The notes below the pieces were generated by a model. It was given only the letters and a program-made list of their open reading frames with translations. It was not told where the DNA came from and did not search any database. Positions 16,554 to 54,074 of a stretch of 64,000 nt of DNA are shown one piece after another. Position 1 is the stretch's first letter. Every line of letters begins with the position of its first letter. The stretch lies in the sequence record OP168898.1; one strand, written 5' to 3'. The DNA comes from Escherichia phage ZCEC14. The translations under genes were made by a program, and so were the position numbers.

Positions 16554-17027
16554 ATGTTATTGACTGGCAAATTATATAAAGAAGAAAAACAGAAATTTTA
16601 TGATGCACAAAACGGTAAATGCTTAATTTGCCAACGAGAACTAAATCCTGATGTTCAAGCTAATCACCTCGACCATGACCATGAATTAAATGGACCAAAA
16701 GCAGGAAAGGTGCGTGGATTGCTTTGTAATCTCTGCAATGCCGCAGAAGGTCAAATGAAACATAAATTTAATCGTTCTGGCTTAAAGGGACAAGGGGTTG
16801 ATTATCTTGAATGGTTAGAAAATTTACTTACTTATTTAAAATCCGATTACACCCAAAATAATATTCACCCTAACTTTGTTGGAGATAAATCAAAGGAATT
16901 TTCTCGTTTAGGAAAAGAGGAAATGATGGCTGAGATGCTTCAAAGAGGATTTGAATATAATGAATCTGACACCAAAACACAGTTAATAGCTTCATTTAAG
17001 AAGCAGCTTAGAAAGAGTTTAAAATGA
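16554..17027 (+). CDS. 49: endonuclease VII (Holliday-junction resolvase)
   Basis: 157 aa; CLIC...HLDHDH...CNLCN motifs; matches T4 gp49. Confidence 0.9.
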   Translation: MLLTGKLYKEEKQKFYDAQNGKCLICQRELNPDVQANHLDHDHELNGPKAGKVRGLLCNLCNAAEGQMKHKFNRSGLKGQGVDYLEWLENLLTYLKSDYTQNNIHPNFVGDKSKEFSRLGKEEMMAEMLQRGFEYNESDTKTQLIASFKKQLRKSLK

Positions 17028-18841
17028 CAATTGAAAAAGAAATTGAAGGATTGATTCATAAAACTAATAAAGACCTTTTAAACGAGAATGCTAATAAAGA
17101 TTCTCGTGTTTTTCCAACTCAACGGGACCTTATGGCTGGTATTGTGTCTAAACACATTGCCAAAAATATGGTCCCGTCTTTTATTATGAAAGCGCATGAA
17201 AGCGGAATTATTCATTTCCACGATATTGATTATTCCCCTGCTCTTCCATTTACTAATTGCTGTTTAGTAGATTTAAAAGGAATGCTTGAGAACGGATTTA
17301 AGCTAGGTAATGCACAGATTGAAACTCCTAAATCAATTGGCGTTGCTACTGCAATTATGGCACAAATTACTGCACAGGTTGCTTCTCACCAATATGGCGG
17401 AACGACTTTTGCGAATGTAGATAAAGTACTTTCTCCTTATGTTAAACGCACCTATGCAAAACATATTGAGGATGCAGAAAAATGGCAAATCACTGATGCG
17501 TTGAATTATGCTCAATCTAAAACAGAAAAAGACGTATACGATGCATTCCAAGCTTATGAATATGAAGTAAATACTCTCTTTAGTTCAAACGGACAAACGC
17601 CTTTTGTAACAATTACATTTGGTACGGGAACTGACTGGACTGAACGAATGATTCAGAAAGCAATTCTGAAAAATCGTATTAAAGGTCTTGGTCGTGATGG
17701 GATAACTCCTATTTTCCCTAAGCTTGTTATGTTCGTTGAAGAAGGTGTTAATCTTTATAAAGACGATCCGAACTATGATATTAAGCAGCTTGCTCTAGAG
17801 TGTGCAAGCAAAAGGATGTATCCTGATATTATTTCAGCTAAGAACAATAAAGCTATCACTGGTTCATCTGTTCCTGTTTCTCCAATGGGTTGCCGTAGTT
17901 TCTTGAGCGTATGGAAAGATTCGACTGGCAATGAAATTCTTGATGGACGTAATAATCTTGGTGTTGTAACATTGAATCTTCCTCGCATCGCGTTAGATTC
18001 TTATATTGGAACACAGTTCAATGAACAGAAATTTGTTGAATTGTTCAATGAACGAATGGATTTATGTTTTGAAGCTTTGATGTGTAGAATTAGTTCCTTA
18101 AAAGGAGTTAAAGCTACTGTTGCTCCTATTCTTTACCAAGAAGGTGCATTCGGGGTTCGTCTTAAACCTGATGACGATATAATTGAGTTATTTAAAAACG
18201 GTAGAAGTTCAGTGTCTTTAGGATACATTGGTATTCACGAATTGAATATTCTTGTCGGTCGTGATATTGGACAGGAAATTTTAACTAAAATGAATGCTCA
18301 TCTTAAACAGTGGACTGAAAGAACCGGATTTGCTTTTAGTTTATATTCGACTCCTGCTGAAAACCTTTGTTATCGCTTCTGTAAACTTGATACAGAAAAA
18401 TATGGAAGCGTAAAAGATGTTACCGATAAAGGCTGGTACACTAACAGTTTCCATGTTTCAGTAGAAGAAAATATTACTCCGTTTGAAAAAATTTCTCGTG
18501 AAGCGCCATATCATTTCATTGCGACAGGTGGTCACATTTCTTATGTTGAACTTCCTGATATGAAAAACAATTTAAAAGGTCTTGAGGCTGTATGGGATTA
18601 TGCTGCACAACATTTAGATTATTTTGGTGTTAATATGCCAGTAGATAAATGTTTTACATGTGGAAGTACCCATGAAATGACTCCTACTGAAAACGGATTT
18701 GTTTGTTCTATTTGTGAAGAAACTGATCCTAAAAAGATGAATACTATAAGAAGAACATGTGGTTATTTGGGAAATCCGAACGAACGCGGATTTAATCTCG
18801 GTAAAAATAAAGAAATCATGCATAGGGTTAAGCACCAATGA
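17024..18841 (+). CDS. nrdD: anaerobic ribonucleoside-triphosphate reductase
   Basis: 605 aa; C-terminal glycyl-radical region RRTCGYLG and Cys cluster; one uninterrupted ORF. Confidence 0.9.
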   Translation: MTIEKEIEGLIHKTNKDLLNENANKDSRVFPTQRDLMAGIVSKHIAKNMVPSFIMKAHESGIIHFHDIDYSPALPFTNCCLVDLKGMLENGFKLGNAQIETPKSIGVATAIMAQITAQVASHQYGGTTFANVDKVLSPYVKRTYAKHIEDAEKWQITDALNYAQSKTEKDVYDAFQAYEYEVNTLFSSNGQTPFVTITFGTGTDWTERMIQKAILKNRIKGLGRDGITPIFPKLVMFVEEGVNLYKDDPNYDIKQLALECASKRMYPDIISAKNNKAITGSSVPVSPMGCRSFLSVWKDSTGNEILDGRNNLGVVTLNLPRIALDSYIGTQFNEQKFVELFNERMDLCFEALMCRISSLKGVKATVAPILYQEGAFGVRLKPDDDIIELFKNGRSSVSLGYIGIHELNILVGRDIGQEILTKMNAHLKQWTERTGFAFSLYSTPAENLCYRFCKLDTEKYGSVKDVTDKGWYTNSFHVSVEENITPFEKISREAPYHFIATGGHISYVELPDMKNNLKGLEAVWDYAAQHLDYFGVNMPVDKCFTCGSTHEMTPTENGFVCSICEETDPKKMNTIRRTCGYLGNPNERGFNLGKNKEIMHRVKHQ

Positions 18842-19308
18842 ATTATGATAGATTTTATCCTTGCGATTTTGTGAATGGCCCTGGTTGCAGGGTCGTTCTT
18901 TTCGTTACAGGTTGTTTGCATAAATGTGAAGGGTGTTATAATAAATCAACATGGAATGCTAGAAATGGTATTCCATTCACTGGTGAAACACTAGAACAAT
19001 TGATTGAATGTTTGAATAATGATTATATAGAAGGATTAACTATAACTGGAGGAGACCCTCTCTATCCTGACAATCGAGATGTTATTCATTGCATTGTTCA
19101 AACAGTAAAAAATCTTTATCCCAATAAAAGCATTTGGTTGTGGACAGGATATAAGTTTGAAGATATTAAACAACTAGAAATGCTTAAATATGTTGATGTT
19201 ATTATTGATGGGAAGTATGAGAAAAATCTTCCGACTAAAAAGCTGTGGCGAGGATCAGATAATCAGCGACTTTGGTCAAATACCGATGGGGTGTGGAAAC
19301 ATGATTAA
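18838..19308 (+). CDS. nrdG: anaerobic RNR activating enzyme (radical SAM)
   Basis: 156 aa; N-terminal Cys-rich motif; directly after nrdD. Confidence 0.85.
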   Translation: MNYDRFYPCDFVNGPGCRVVLFVTGCLHKCEGCYNKSTWNARNGIPFTGETLEQLIECLNNDYIEGLTITGGDPLYPDNRDVIHCIVQTVKNLYPNKSIWLWTGYKFEDIKQLEMLKYVDVIIDGKYEKNLPTKKLWRGSDNQRLWSNTDGVWKHD

Positions 19309-41819: not shown

Positions 41820-42848
41820 ATGTCATCAATACCTTGGATTGATAATGAGTTTGCGTATCGTGCATTAGCTCATTTACCTAAATTTACACAAGTAAATAAT
41901 AGTTCAACTTTTAAATTACGGTTTAGATGCCCTGTTTGTGGAGATTCAAAAACCGACCAGAATAAAGCTCGTGGATGGTATTATGGTGATAATAATGAAG
42001 GAAATATTCATTGTTATAACTGTAACTATCATGCACCAATCGGAATATATTTAAAGGAGTTTGAACCTGATTTATATCGTGAGTATATCTTTGAAATAAG
42101 AAAAGAAAAAGGTAAAAGTCGTCCAGTAGAAAAACCTAAAGAACTTCCTAAACAACCTGAGAAGAAAATAATTAAATCTCTTCCGTCATGTATTAGATTA
42201 GATAAACTGGTGGAAGACCATCCAATTATAAAATATGTAAAAGCTCGTTGTATTCCAAAGGATAAATGGAAATATCTTTGGTTTACAACCGAATGGCCTA
42301 AATTAGTTAATAGCATAGCACCGGGAACATATAAAAAGGAAATACCTGAGCCTCGTCTTGTTATTCCAATTTATAATGCTAATGGAAAAGCTGAGTCTTT
42401 TCAAGGACGTGCATTAAAGAAAGATGCTCCTCAAAAATATATCACCATCAAAGCTTATCCTGAGGCAACAAAAATCTATGGAGTCGAACGAGTTAAAGAT
42501 GGTGATGTATATGTTCTAGAAGGACCTATAGATTCACTTTTTATTGAAAATGGTATAGCTATTACGGGTGGTCAATTAGACCTAGAAGTTGTTCCATTTA
42601 AAGATAGACGCGTGTGGGTCTTAGATAATGAACCTCGTCACCCTGACACTATCAAACGAATGACTAAATTAGTTGATGCAGGAGAAAGGGTTATGTTTTG
42701 GGATAAATCTCCCTGGAAATCAAAAGATGTTAATGATATGATTAGAAAGGAAGGTGCAACCCCTGAACAAATTATGGAATATATGAAAAATAATATTGCC
42801 CAGGGGTTAATGGCTAAAATGCGGTTATCTAAATATGCTAAGATTTAA
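41820..42848 (+). CDS. 61: DNA primase gp61
   Basis: 342 aa; N-terminal zinc ribbon CPVCGDS...CYNCNYH; Toprim-like EGPIDSLF. Confidence 0.9.
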   Translation: MSSIPWIDNEFAYRALAHLPKFTQVNNSSTFKLRFRCPVCGDSKTDQNKARGWYYGDNNEGNIHCYNCNYHAPIGIYLKEFEPDLYREYIFEIRKEKGKSRPVEKPKELPKQPEKKIIKSLPSCIRLDKLVEDHPIIKYVKARCIPKDKWKYLWFTTEWPKLVNSIAPGTYKKEIPEPRLVIPIYNANGKAESFQGRALKKDAPQKYITIKAYPEATKIYGVERVKDGDVYVLEGPIDSLFIENGIAITGGQLDLEVVPFKDRRVWVLDNEPRHPDTIKRMTKLVDAGERVMFWDKSPWKSKDVNDMIRKEGATPEQIMEYMKNNIAQGLMAKMRLSKYAKI

Positions 42849-43045
42849 ATTAACCCAACTAAAGCAAATGCTAAATCTACAAATGTATCAAGAGTAACTA
42901 CTGGAATATTAACACCATGAGCAATAGCAATTGGTGATAAAACAAAATTCCAGAGTAAAATTCCTACCATAGCAGAAATAGTAAAAGCTATACGCTTTTT
43001 ATTACCTTTGATGGCATTAACAAGTGCCATTAATTTTTGTACCAT
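42845..43045 (-). CDS. small membrane protein, convergently transcribed
   Basis: 66 aa, two hydrophobic helices; SD aaggagg 4 nt before ATG; lies in the 61-56 intergenic space, stop overlaps gene 61 stop. Confidence 0.5.
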   Translation of the reverse strand: MVQKLMALVNAIKGNKKRIAFTISAMVGILLWNFVLSPIAIAHGVNIPVVTLDTFVDLAFALVGLI

Positions 43046-43116
43046 ATGTCCTCCTTATTGCTTTATATATTTATTGTATAATTAATCTACTAACCCATGA
43101 ATTGAAAGGAAAAATA

Positions 43117-43635
43117 ATGGCATACTTTAACGAATGTAGTCAACTGATTGAAGGCGCTGATAAAGCTCAAAATGAATATTGGGATATTCTTGGTGATGAA
43201 AAAGACCCGCTGCAGGTTATGCTTGATATGCAGAAATCTCTACAGGTTCGTTTAGCTAAAGATAAACCTGAATATAATCGTCATCCTGATGACTTGGCTA
43301 CTGCAGGCGAAGTTGTTGATTGGCTGCGCAATCAGAAAGATTATATTGATGATGAATTCCGTGAACTTCTGACTTCTCTTGGTGGTATGAGCAATGGTGA
43401 AAAAGATGCATCTGCTGTATGGAAGCCTTGGAAGTCGCAACATGGTGAACGTCGTGAAACTCTAATTACTGATTTGTCTCCGCAAGATCAATTGGAAATT
43501 AAATTTGAAATGATTGATATTCTCCATTTCGTTCTGAACATGTTCCAAGGTCTTGGTCTTACAGCAGAAGAAATCTTTAAACTTTATTATCTGAAAAATG
43601 CTGAAAACTTTGCTCGTCAAGACCGAGGTTATTAA
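43117..43635 (+). CDS. 56: dCTPase/dCDPase gp56
   Basis: 172 aa from ATG (MAYFNECSQLIEG...); matches T4 gp56; track start 43024 is a spurious extension. Confidence 0.85.
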   Translation: MAYFNECSQLIEGADKAQNEYWDILGDEKDPLQVMLDMQKSLQVRLAKDKPEYNRHPDDLATAGEVVDWLRNQKDYIDDEFRELLTSLGGMSNGEKDASAVWKPWKSQHGERRETLITDLSPQDQLEIKFEMIDILHFVLNMFQGLGLTAEEIFKLYYLKNAENFARQDRGY

Positions 43636-43703: not shown

Positions 43704-43949
43704 ATGGCTAGTACTCGCGGTTATGTTAATATCAAAACATTTGAGCAGAAATTAGATGGAAATAAGAAAATTGAAGGAAAGGAAATTTCAGTAGCTTTCC
43801 CTCTTTATTCTGACGTTCACAAAATTTCTGGTGCTCATTACCAGACGTTCCCTTCAGAAAAAGCAGCATATACTACTGTATATGAAGAAAATCAGCGTAC
43901 TGAATGGATTGCTGCAAACGAAGATTTGTGGAAAGTAACTGGTGGTTAA
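43704..43949 (+). CDS. soc: small outer capsid protein Soc
   Basis: 81-aa ORF; sequence matches T4 Soc as recalled; SD aaggag; late promoter upstream. Confidence 0.85.
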   Translation: MASTRGYVNIKTFEQKLDGNKKIEGKEISVAFPLYSDVHKISGAHYQTFPSEKAAYTTVYEENQRTEWIAANEDLWKVTGG

Positions 43950-53117: not shown

Positions 53118-53521
53118 TGGCTATTAGATTTGAAGTTAATAAATGGTATCAATTTAAAAATAAACAAGCTCAAGAAAATTTTATTAAAGACCATACTGAT
53201 AACGGAATCTATGCACGACGTTTAGGTATGGAACCTTTTAAAATTTTAGATGCTGATTATCTTGGGCGTCCTACTAAAATTGTGACATCCACAGGTGTAC
53301 TCAAACGTTGTGCCGGCGCTGATATCCTTGACGAAAACTTTATCTGGCTCTCTACTAACGAAGCTGGGTTCTTTGATGAAGTGGAAAATCCATACCAAGC
53401 TTCTGAAGAGCAAGAACAAATAGAAGATTTCACAGAATTCCCTGTCATGAAAGTTACTATTGAAAATAATGAACAGGCATGGTCCTTGTATCAGATGTTG
53501 AAAGCACACTTTAAGGAATAA
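53117..53521 (+). CDS. hypothetical protein (goF position)
   Basis: 134-aa ORF, start overlaps upstream stop. Confidence 0.5.
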
Positions 53522-53523
53522 TT

Positions 53524-53700
53524 ATGCCAATGTATGATTATAAATGCCAATCTGAAGATTGCGGGCATGAATATGAAAAAATTAAAAAGATTTCTGAACG
53601 AGAAAATGATGTTTGCCCTAAATGTCATCGTTTGTCTACTCGTCGGCCTTCTGCTCCTAAGCATGTGAATGGTGGATTTTACGACTTACTTAAAGGGTGA
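53524..53700 (+). CDS. small zinc-ribbon protein
   Basis: 58-aa ORF below track cutoff; CQSEDCGH...(22)...CPKCH pattern. Confidence 0.45.
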   Translation: MPMYDYKCQSEDCGHEYEKIKKISERENDVCPKCHRLSTRRPSAPKHVNGGFYDLLKG

Positions 53701-53702
53701 TT

Positions 53703-54074
53703 ATGTTTAAAATCGGTAAGAAATATCGTGTTCGCGAAGGTGAAGAAAAGAAATATCTACTTTCTTCTATTTATAGGAATGGTTCTATTAATGCCGTAAT
53801 ATCTTCAAGCGAATTTATCGTTGAAGATATGAAAGGCCATAATGTTACAATGATTAGTACAGCATCTGGAAATGATGGAAAAATTCTTCACAGTTTTCAG
53901 AGTAATGTTCTAATTTATGATGAAGAATTTGACTTCTTCGAAGAAGTTCCTGAAGATTTTGATTTTGAATGCACTATCACTATGAAATCTGGCGACCCTA
54001 TTTCTTTTACAGTTAAAGATGAAAGAAGTCGCTTGAGAATTATTAGTCTTCTTCAAGCCATTAAATTTAAGTGA
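53703..54074 (+). CDS. hypothetical protein
   Basis: 123 aa from in-frame ATG of track ORF 53697-54074. Confidence 0.5.
   Translation: MFKIGKKYRVREGEEKKYLLSSIYRNGSINAVISSSEFIVEDMKGHNVTMISTASGNDGKILHSFQSNVLIYDEEFDFFEEVPEDFDFECTITMKSGDPISFTVKDERSRLRIISLLQAIKFK

Follow-up and report, generated by a model that had tools for sequence, protein, structure and literature searches.

A conserved gene converging on the primase gene of T-even phages carries a late-promoter box and probably encodes a small inner-membrane protein

Introduction

The known lysis genes of bacteriophage T4 are scattered singly, with late promoters, in early regions of the genome, and the T4 genes rI, 49 and soc are expressed late. 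Genomes of T4 relatives also contain a short open reading frame (ORF) that is already known as an annotated hypothetical family, RB32ORF030w / RB69ORF029w, which corresponds to PHROG 2024. Here, we describe the member of this family found in Escherichia phage ZCEC14 (OP168898.1), where it encodes 66 amino acids (aa) on the minus strand and converges on gene 61, the primase gene. The DNA analyzed, referred to as the window, is a stretch of 64,000 nucleotides (64 kb) from this phage. It is a segment of a Tequatrovirus (T-even) genome, and RB32, RB33 and RB51 are ~97% identical to it over the locus.

T4 late promoters have been compiled by Geiduschek and Kassavetis (PMC2988020). Of the 50 listed, 32 match TATAAATA perfectly, whereas 9 carry A at −13, the commonest variant. 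Variant late promoters are used both in vitro and in vivo (PMC2988020). A T4 differential RNA sequencing preprint (bioRxiv 10.1101/2024.04.04.588121) reports 150 T4 transcription start sites, of which 22 are antisense. Our literature search found no paper naming RB32ORF030w or RB69ORF029w and nothing specific on unannotated or antisense T4 late genes.

Results

Comparative evidence, namely dN/dS, codon-position bias and distribution, is decisive in showing that the 66-aa ORF is a genuine, conserved and syntenic protein-coding gene. A Shine-Dalgarno (SD) sequence and a late-promoter box precede it. The window and T4 copies differ by 8 synonymous and 3 nonsynonymous substitutions, and the RB69 copy differs from that of a metagenomic relative (L013) by 6 and 2, respectively; dN/dS is 0.10 in both comparisons. 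Between genera, synonymous sites are saturated, yet the proteins are 50–70% identical. The variable sites at codon positions 1/2/3 number 6/2/12 in Tequatrovirus, 6/0/12 in Mosigvirus and 18/7/49 in a second subtype, type B, which is described below. Only one of the six frames across the ORF interval is open, the other five holding 2–8 stops. A tblastn search with type A, the subtype of the window protein, matched 692 phage records, with near-full-length matches in 686. Identity to the window protein is 90–100% in Tequatrovirus and ~50–55% in Mosigvirus (RB69) and Gaprivervirus (VR25). An earlier note, made from the letters of the window, had named conservation in related genomes as a check on its proposed gene; the ORF is clearly conserved, which favors a gene.

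The length of the ORF by itself carries no significance because 61 ORFs of 60 aa or more occur on the minus strand of the window, and plus-strand ORFs overlap the majority. Positions 42849–43023, however, form one of only five window gaps of at least 120 nt that are free of plus-strand ORFs, and 87% of the 66-aa ORF lies outside plus-strand ORFs. Among minus-strand ORFs of at least 50 aa, it alone occupies such a gap and has a start and a sequence that are plausible, in agreement with the earlier description of it as the only credible minus-strand gene in 64 kb. The ORF, its strong AAGGAGG SD and the overlap of its stop with that of gene 61 were likewise found in the sequence as that note had given them. 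This heptamer has two copies in the whole 64-kb window, and a GGAG(G)-type SD is conserved upstream of the ORF in all lineages examined. The intergenic space between gene 61 and the ORF is zero, and the 4-nt stop overlap recurs in RB51, T4, RB69, VR25 (type B copy), G4498 and Klebsiella phages. The L016 lineage has a 9-nt gap, not an overlap, between the ORF and the primase gene. Jointly, the coding gap, the SD, the late-promoter box, the third-position-biased variation and the conservation are far beyond chance.

T4 late transcripts depend on gp55, gp33 and gp45, and their promoters have a TATAAATA-type box ~6 nt upstream of the transcription start and need no −35 element. The box upstream of the ORF, AATAAATA, is of this type. 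The predicted start is near position 43062 (−), which would give a leader of ~16 nt. An ATAAATA core is found 16–22 nt upstream of the ATG in four type A lineages, followed by a strong SD, with differing flanking sequence. The base preceding this core is A in the window, RB51 and RB69, G in T4 and C in VR25. In Klebsiella phages, a perfect TATAAATA stands 19 nt upstream of the ATG of the type B genes.

The ATAAATA core is depleted ~8-fold in the window, with 5 copies on both strands as compared to 40 ± 7 expected, and the full TATAAATA has 3 copies as compared to 10 expected. The window seems to have been purged of ATAAATA except where it is used. The distance from the core to the ATG is 25 nt for rI.-1/rI, 29 nt for gene 49 (as AATAAATA), 30 nt for soc and 22 nt for the 66-aa ORF. 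Because the core is rare in the window, is kept in relatives and in three of its other four copies stands before the late genes rI, 49 and soc, late, gp55-dependent transcription of the ORF is predicted and is well supported by sequence. The fifth copy is an orphan antisense site, a perfect TATAAATA at 53768–53775 (−) inside a plus-strand, RB32ORF005c-like gene (53697..54074). T4 lacks that host gene, and this box is therefore not common to T4. A second minus-strand gene read from it was considered and rejected, as the only downstream ORF (53491..53664) lies inside plus-strand genes and looks noncoding. The box could be an orphan antisense late promoter, or it could have arisen by chance.

The predicted protein begins with a basic region, residues 1–19 containing five Lys/Arg and no acidic residue (net charge +5). 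The best hydrophobic window covers residues 19–42. The last 24 residues are hydrophobic, with two Asp and no basic residue, and are a marginal membrane span by an additive insertion scale. An AlphaFold2 model built from a 23-sequence alignment (mean predicted local distance difference test score 80.6) has helices at residues 2–13, 16–42 and 52–63 and a loop at 43–51. The 12-residue helix 52–63, as modeled, is too short to cross a membrane. The positive-inside rule predicts a cytoplasmic N-terminus. The earlier note had described two hydrophobic helices. Its reading of the ORF as a convergent gene whose small, hydrophobic product is probably a membrane protein is supported, and one transmembrane (TM) segment (~19–42) is clear, but the C-terminal stretch is acidic and forms only the 12-residue helix in the model. 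Residues M1, W32, N33, P38, G44 and P48 are invariant in both subtypes, V50 and G64 are nearly so, and position 53 is acidic (Asp or Glu) in 23/23 aligned sequences. Conserved residues cluster from the periplasm-proximal half of the span through the loop into the first part of the tail, whereas the cytoplasm-proximal half varies freely. A conserved Asn within a membrane span classically promotes the association of helices.

The protein matches PHROG 2024 (unknown function) with an E value of 2.3e-31, ORF residues 2–66 aligning to profile positions 1–65 of 65; its relatives match with E values of 1e-26 to 1e-28. ORFs that are 97–100% identical are annotated in RB32, RB51 and others, the RB51 entry reading "RB32ORF030w hypothetical protein, similar to RB69ORF029w". 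Every name in the 90% cluster (156 members) is "hypothetical" or "uncharacterized". An orthologue in OE5505 is named "Holin" in UniProt, a label without stated evidence. No match to the 66-aa protein was found in Pfam, NCBIfam, PADLOC or a PDB sequence profile search, in keeping with the earlier description of the product as uncharacterized. In a Foldseek search against viral structures, all matches above noise belonged to its own family, and a phmmer search of 1.84 billion representatives returned nothing beyond it. Two long phmmer matches (P0034 and P0038) are repetitive proteins and were judged spurious.

A profile search recovered type B, which is 22–25% identical to the window protein and occurs in 136 phage records, comprising JS98-like phages, VR7, Klebsiella phages (Potts1, Marfa, pzk-kv8) and Enterobacter and Pectobacterium phages. 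Weak type B matches occur in Citrobacter, Kosakonia and Edwardsiella phages. Type B also matches PHROG 2024 and occupies the same site, where it overlaps the primase gene by the same 4 nt. The copy is present but unannotated in the records of JS98, IME08 and VR7. A search for related loci with the type A alignment yielded 10 loci. In VR25 (L004 1495..1901, Gaprivervirus), types A and B stand in tandem, with one promoter box before the first copy. The type B copy is truncated or decayed in TH40 (L005 ~1700–1920) and several other genomes. This decay in tandem genomes suggests that the two types are redundant or interchangeable, and the VR25/TH40 arrangement looks like a duplication or acquisition followed by loss of the redundant copy.

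At every locus examined (window, RB51, T4, RB69, VR25, L016, Potts1, pzk-kv8 and G4498), the gene converges on the 3' end of the primase gene. In T4, dam (16846–17625) and gene 61 (17935–18963) are separated by a 309-bp unannotated gap. The T4 copy, at NC_000866.4 17738..17938 (+) (L002 4739..4939), is identical at 63/66 residues (95%) and shares the TTAA overlap. It is unannotated in the T4 RefSeq record, in which only "61" is annotated under the tblastn match. The gene abuts gene 61 in Tequatrovirus, Mosigvirus, Gaprivervirus, Klebsiella T4-like phages and the unclassified metagenomic L016, whatever its other flank. That flank, between the ORF promoter and gene 56, holds nothing in the window, RB32 and RB51, dam in T4 (L002 3847..4626), a homing endonuclease in G4498 (L024 1117..1767), and one or two ORFs (93/94 aa and 248 aa) in Klebsiella phages (L019/L021 2190..2474). 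In RB49 (Krischvirus), the ORF is absent and genes 61 and 56 are 14 nt apart. By comparison of these sequences, the interval from promoter to gene 56 is a recurrent insertion site, or hot spot, beside a fixed small gene. On the same comparison, dam is an independent insertion or deletion beside the 66-aa gene and not its alternative, because the gene abuts gene 61 whatever its other flank and T4 has both. The simplest history is that a self-promoted small gene was inserted beside gene 61 in an ancestor of the Tevenvirinae, with later insertions and losses next to it. The earlier note was right that T4 carries dam and segF at this locus and that the window has neither; tblastn across the entire window found no dam or segF homologue, and the 68-bp spacing of gene 56 and soc was as it had stated.

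The features of the locus are collected in Table 1.

Table 1. Coordinates of genes and signals in the window
Feature	Position	Strand	Details
Gene 61.1		+	Followed by genes 61, 56 and soc in that order
Gene 61	41820..42848	+	Primase gene
66-aa ORF	42845..43045	-	Stop included; ATG start; RB32ORF030w / RB69ORF029w orthologue; PHROG 2024
TTAA common to both convergent stops	42845..42848		Palindrome; gene 61 TAA 42846-42848 (+); ORF TAA complement 42845-42847
Terminator-like hairpin and T-run	43008..43043	+	Stem 43008-43033, 11 pairs, then TTTTTGTACC; consensus scan
Shine-Dalgarno AAGGAGG	43050..43056	-	4 nt upstream of the 66-aa ORF ATG
Middle-promoter-like site for gene 56	43059..43082	+	TGCTTTA (43059-43065), 11 nt, TATAAT (43077-43082)
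Late-promoter box AATAAATA	43068..43075	-	A(-13) variant of TATAAATA
Gene 56	43117..43635	+	
soc	43704..43949	+	
ATAAATA sites, whole window	2659+, 16518+, 43667+, 43074-, 53774-		

The divergent control region between the ORF and gene 56 (43046–43116) is 71 bp long. Within it, the late box of the ORF lies on the minus strand in the spacer of the middle-promoter-like site of gene 56, whose TGCTTTA is MotA-box-like by the published consensus. The two putative promoters would overlap physically and be used at different times.

The terminator-like hairpin lies ~160 nt downstream of the gene 61 stop, within codons 1–13 of the ORF. It is a candidate end of the gene 61 transcript, whose 3' untranslated region (UTR) would then be antisense to nearly the whole ORF. 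The fold is kept in T4 and is not found in RB69, VR25 or L016. The hairpin is therefore a Tequatrovirus feature and not the cause of the conservation of the family, and it was rejected as a reason for conservation of the ORF. In type I toxin-antitoxin systems, a small membrane toxin is paired with a dedicated cis-antisense small RNA that is made from its own promoter. The strand opposite the 66-aa ORF is the 3' end or 3' UTR of gene 61 and not a separate small-RNA gene. Promoter-like sites on the plus strand inside the ORF (42934–42961 and 43017–43045) are not in excess, the scan giving 9 as compared to 7.1 ± 2.7 in shuffled sequence.

In this region of RB51, the one other gene on the opposite strand encodes a mobB-like homing endonuclease and lies between 45.2 and 46 (L018 31961..32674). 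The corresponding 45.2–46 region of the window contains no credible minus-strand ORF, and the window therefore lacks this mobile element of RB51.

Discussion

Our analysis allows us to propose a T-even late gene whose product acts in the inner membrane through helix association, a lineage-specific insertion with its own promoter between genes 61 and 56 and not a replacement for dam; as an overall explanation, this combination is likely. We infer late transcription in vivo, the membrane topology and the mode of action as follows. Its own gp55-type late promoter would drive transcription of the ORF in the direction opposite to the neighboring early genes, so that the product would be made only late in infection. 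The 66-aa product would insert into the inner membrane with its basic N-terminal amphipathic helix on the cytoplasmic side. A single TM helix would carry the invariant Trp-Asn pair and Pro in its periplasm-proximal half, followed by a short loop with the invariant Gly and Pro and by the 12-residue acidic, hydrophobic helix, which would probably lie in or against the outer leaflet. Because the conserved residues include a polar Asn inside the span, the protein may act by helix-helix association, whether with itself in oligomers or with another membrane protein that it contacts at the periplasmic face. In our judgment, the product is probably a single-span, N-in protein of the inner membrane that is made late and acts via a conserved surface at the outer leaflet and periplasmic face.

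The role of such a protein can be named only tentatively. As a late, small, membrane-embedded product with polar residues in its span, and as T4 lysis genes are similarly scattered, it might tune a process of the late envelope, for instance the timing of lysis or the integrity of the membrane; this is our leading guess, although we hold it with little confidence. More speculatively, and with a somewhat lower likelihood, the gene may be an overlooked late T4 gene whose small membrane protein is a new player in a late envelope process. Possible forms include a viroporin-like or partner-binding factor that times holin triggering or lysis inhibition, or a late-acting membrane effector against a host defense. 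In such a scenario, the convergent late transcript might double as an antisense brake on primase expression.

Several observations weigh against our proposal. The lysis genes known in T4-type phages already form a complete set, which leaves no need for a further lysis role. The protein has no homology to a characterized protein, and its mode of action is drawn from anatomy only. The sequence P38-x-A-x-A42 / H-G after the hydrophobic stretch is a possible signal-peptidase site, which would make the mature product a 24-residue peptide. In type A phages, the promoter box starts with A, G or C, and not T, and variants of this kind may differ in strength in vivo (PMC2988020). The L016 lineage carries TATTAATA in place of the box.

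The alternatives differ in which part of this proposal they challenge. The possibility that the ORF is a chance frame in the 3' UTR of gene 61, kept for RNA or terminator elements, draws on the plus-strand hairpin inside it, the missing T4 RefSeq annotation and the abundance of minus-strand ORFs of this length. It is very improbable, since the frame stays open at 22–55% identity across genera with codon-position bias and low dN/dS, the hairpin is not conserved beyond Tequatrovirus, and a conserved SD and promoter box precede the ATG. A related alternative places the function in the transcript rather than the protein. A late antisense RNA running into the 3' end of the primase gene would help to shut off or process the messages of gene 61 and genes upstream late in infection; the ORF would be secondary, or the gene would have two functions, a variant compatible with the protein reading. 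The tail-to-tail layout, usually with the 4-nt stop overlap, is kept across genera, the consensus scan finds no terminator-like site on the minus strand for 850 nt downstream, and the Tequatrovirus gene 61 message probably crosses the ORF to the hairpin stem at 43008–43033, which would make the two RNAs complementary. Both strands of T4 are also transcribed at different times at several sites (PMC2988020). However, purifying selection on the amino acids is strong, with invariant residues across subtypes that are 22–25% identical, and the strong SD is conserved everywhere. RB49 copes without the gene, L016 has a gap in place of the overlap, and synteny alone could preserve the layout without selection. 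We therefore consider the antisense alternative unlikely. Some RNA-RNA interplay between the ORF and gene 61 transcripts is conceivable from their arrangement, but it is unlikely to be the main function, given the strong selection on the protein. The replacement of dam by a locus-specific gene in this phage, as the earlier note had suggested, started from a window without dam or segF, in which the ORF fills the 61–56 interval where T4 has dam. This idea is refuted by T4 itself, which has dam and the 95%-identical ORF side by side, and the ORF abuts gene 61 in each genus examined, whatever stands before gene 56; we give it next to no weight.

The remaining alternatives concern the protein. It could be a secreted pre-peptide, in which residues 1–42 are a long signal peptide cut after P-I-A-I-A to free an acidic, hydrophobic peptide of 24 residues, HGVNIPVVTLDTFVDLAFALVGLI, at the periplasmic face. 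A basic n-region and hydrophobic core come first, Pro is invariant at −5 and Gly at +2, the −1 residue is small (A/T/S) and the −3 residue small or aliphatic (A/L) in all family members, and there is a superficial likeness to the RI N-terminal region (FVLSPSIEA / N). The hydrophobic core, however, is ~19–24 residues, which is membrane-anchor length, and the invariant W-N inside it would be odd for a disposable leader. AlphaFold also has a continuous helix across the proposed cleavage site. Given the anchor-length core with its invariant W-N, the pre-peptide is rated below the anchored protein, and we see only a slim chance for it. A holin or pinholin-type lysis protein, accumulating late in the inner membrane and forming holes or depolarizing it to trigger lysis, would also be small, with a predicted late promoter and a TM helix containing polar residues (Asn in both types, Asp also in B). 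Like the T4 lysis genes, of which rI is an example in the window, the gene is scattered in an early region, and its OE5505 orthologue is called "Holin". That label comes without stated evidence, and searches of Pfam, PHROGs and NCBIfam gave no holin-family match. The protein has its charged domain at the N-terminus and a C-terminus that is hydrophobic and acidic, whereas holins are usually laid out the other way round; only a single span is long enough to cross the membrane; no endolysin is adjacent; and such phages already encode the T holin. Holin function is thus improbable.

The membrane-anchored late protein that we favor matters chiefly for what it adds to the T4 map. Purifying selection clearly acts on this gene, which is common to the enterobacterial T-even group yet missing from the T4 reference record. 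Its late promoter and its orientation opposite to all neighbors make it a clean candidate for an uncharacterized late membrane function, and the findings at the 61–56 junction correct the idea that dam and the ORF are alternatives. As a sequence feature it is ordinary, the ORF having been present in RB-phage annotations for years and the window copy being a near-identical orthologue.

Several known systems resemble the window gene in part. Phage morons are alike in being single small genes with their own promoters; the window gene, too, lies between genes that are adjacent in the outgroup RB49, and its orientation is independent of its neighbors. Morons are defined in temperate phages and are usually prophage-expressed, whereas the window gene belongs to a virulent phage and uses that phage's own late promoter type. 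The genes rI.-1/rI, 49 and soc share a (T/A)ATAAATA box 22–30 nt upstream of the ATG in a motif-poor region, and rI also encodes a small envelope protein. These genes are co-directional with early genes and their late expression is documented; the 66-aa ORF, in contrast, is opposite in orientation and its late expression is predicted.

Class II holins and pinholins, such as S68 of phage 21, are likewise small, with a hydrophobic helix containing polar residues; their late timing has its counterpart in the timing predicted here. Holins of this class act by a lethal, timed permeabilization of the inner membrane, by which endolysin is released or activated. Their layout of two spans and a short basic cytoplasmic C-terminal domain was not found in the window protein, which has a span of 24–27 residues, a second helix of 12, a +5 N-terminus and a C-terminus with two acidic residues and no basic one. 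They differ further in showing no sequence match and in having C-terminal charges, whereas the window protein is single-span and has no adjacent endolysin. Homology to the RI antiholin, including its T-binding periplasmic domain, was not found, the 66-aa protein having no periplasmic domain. A likeness to the RI N-terminus (common FVLSP) was rejected by profile-profile comparison (probability 0.06%), and BLASTP against RI gave only a 20-residue hydrophobic match (17.7 bits, E 0.009 in a single comparison).

Closer to the window protein is the VR25 gp032-type (type B) protein, which shares its PHROG, its length of 66 aa, convergence on the primase gene, the W-N...P...G...P core and a late promoter. 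Type B differs in having an extra Asp in the TM span and a less hydrophobic C-terminal tail without the second acidic residue, and its promoter box is a perfect TATAAATA rather than the AATAAATA of the window. The closest system is RB32ORF030w / RB69ORF029w itself, found in RB32, RB51, RB69, AR1 and hundreds of Tequatrovirus, Mosigvirus and Gaprivervirus genomes. It is the same gene, alike in length, position and overlap with the gene 61 stop and without material difference from the window ORF.

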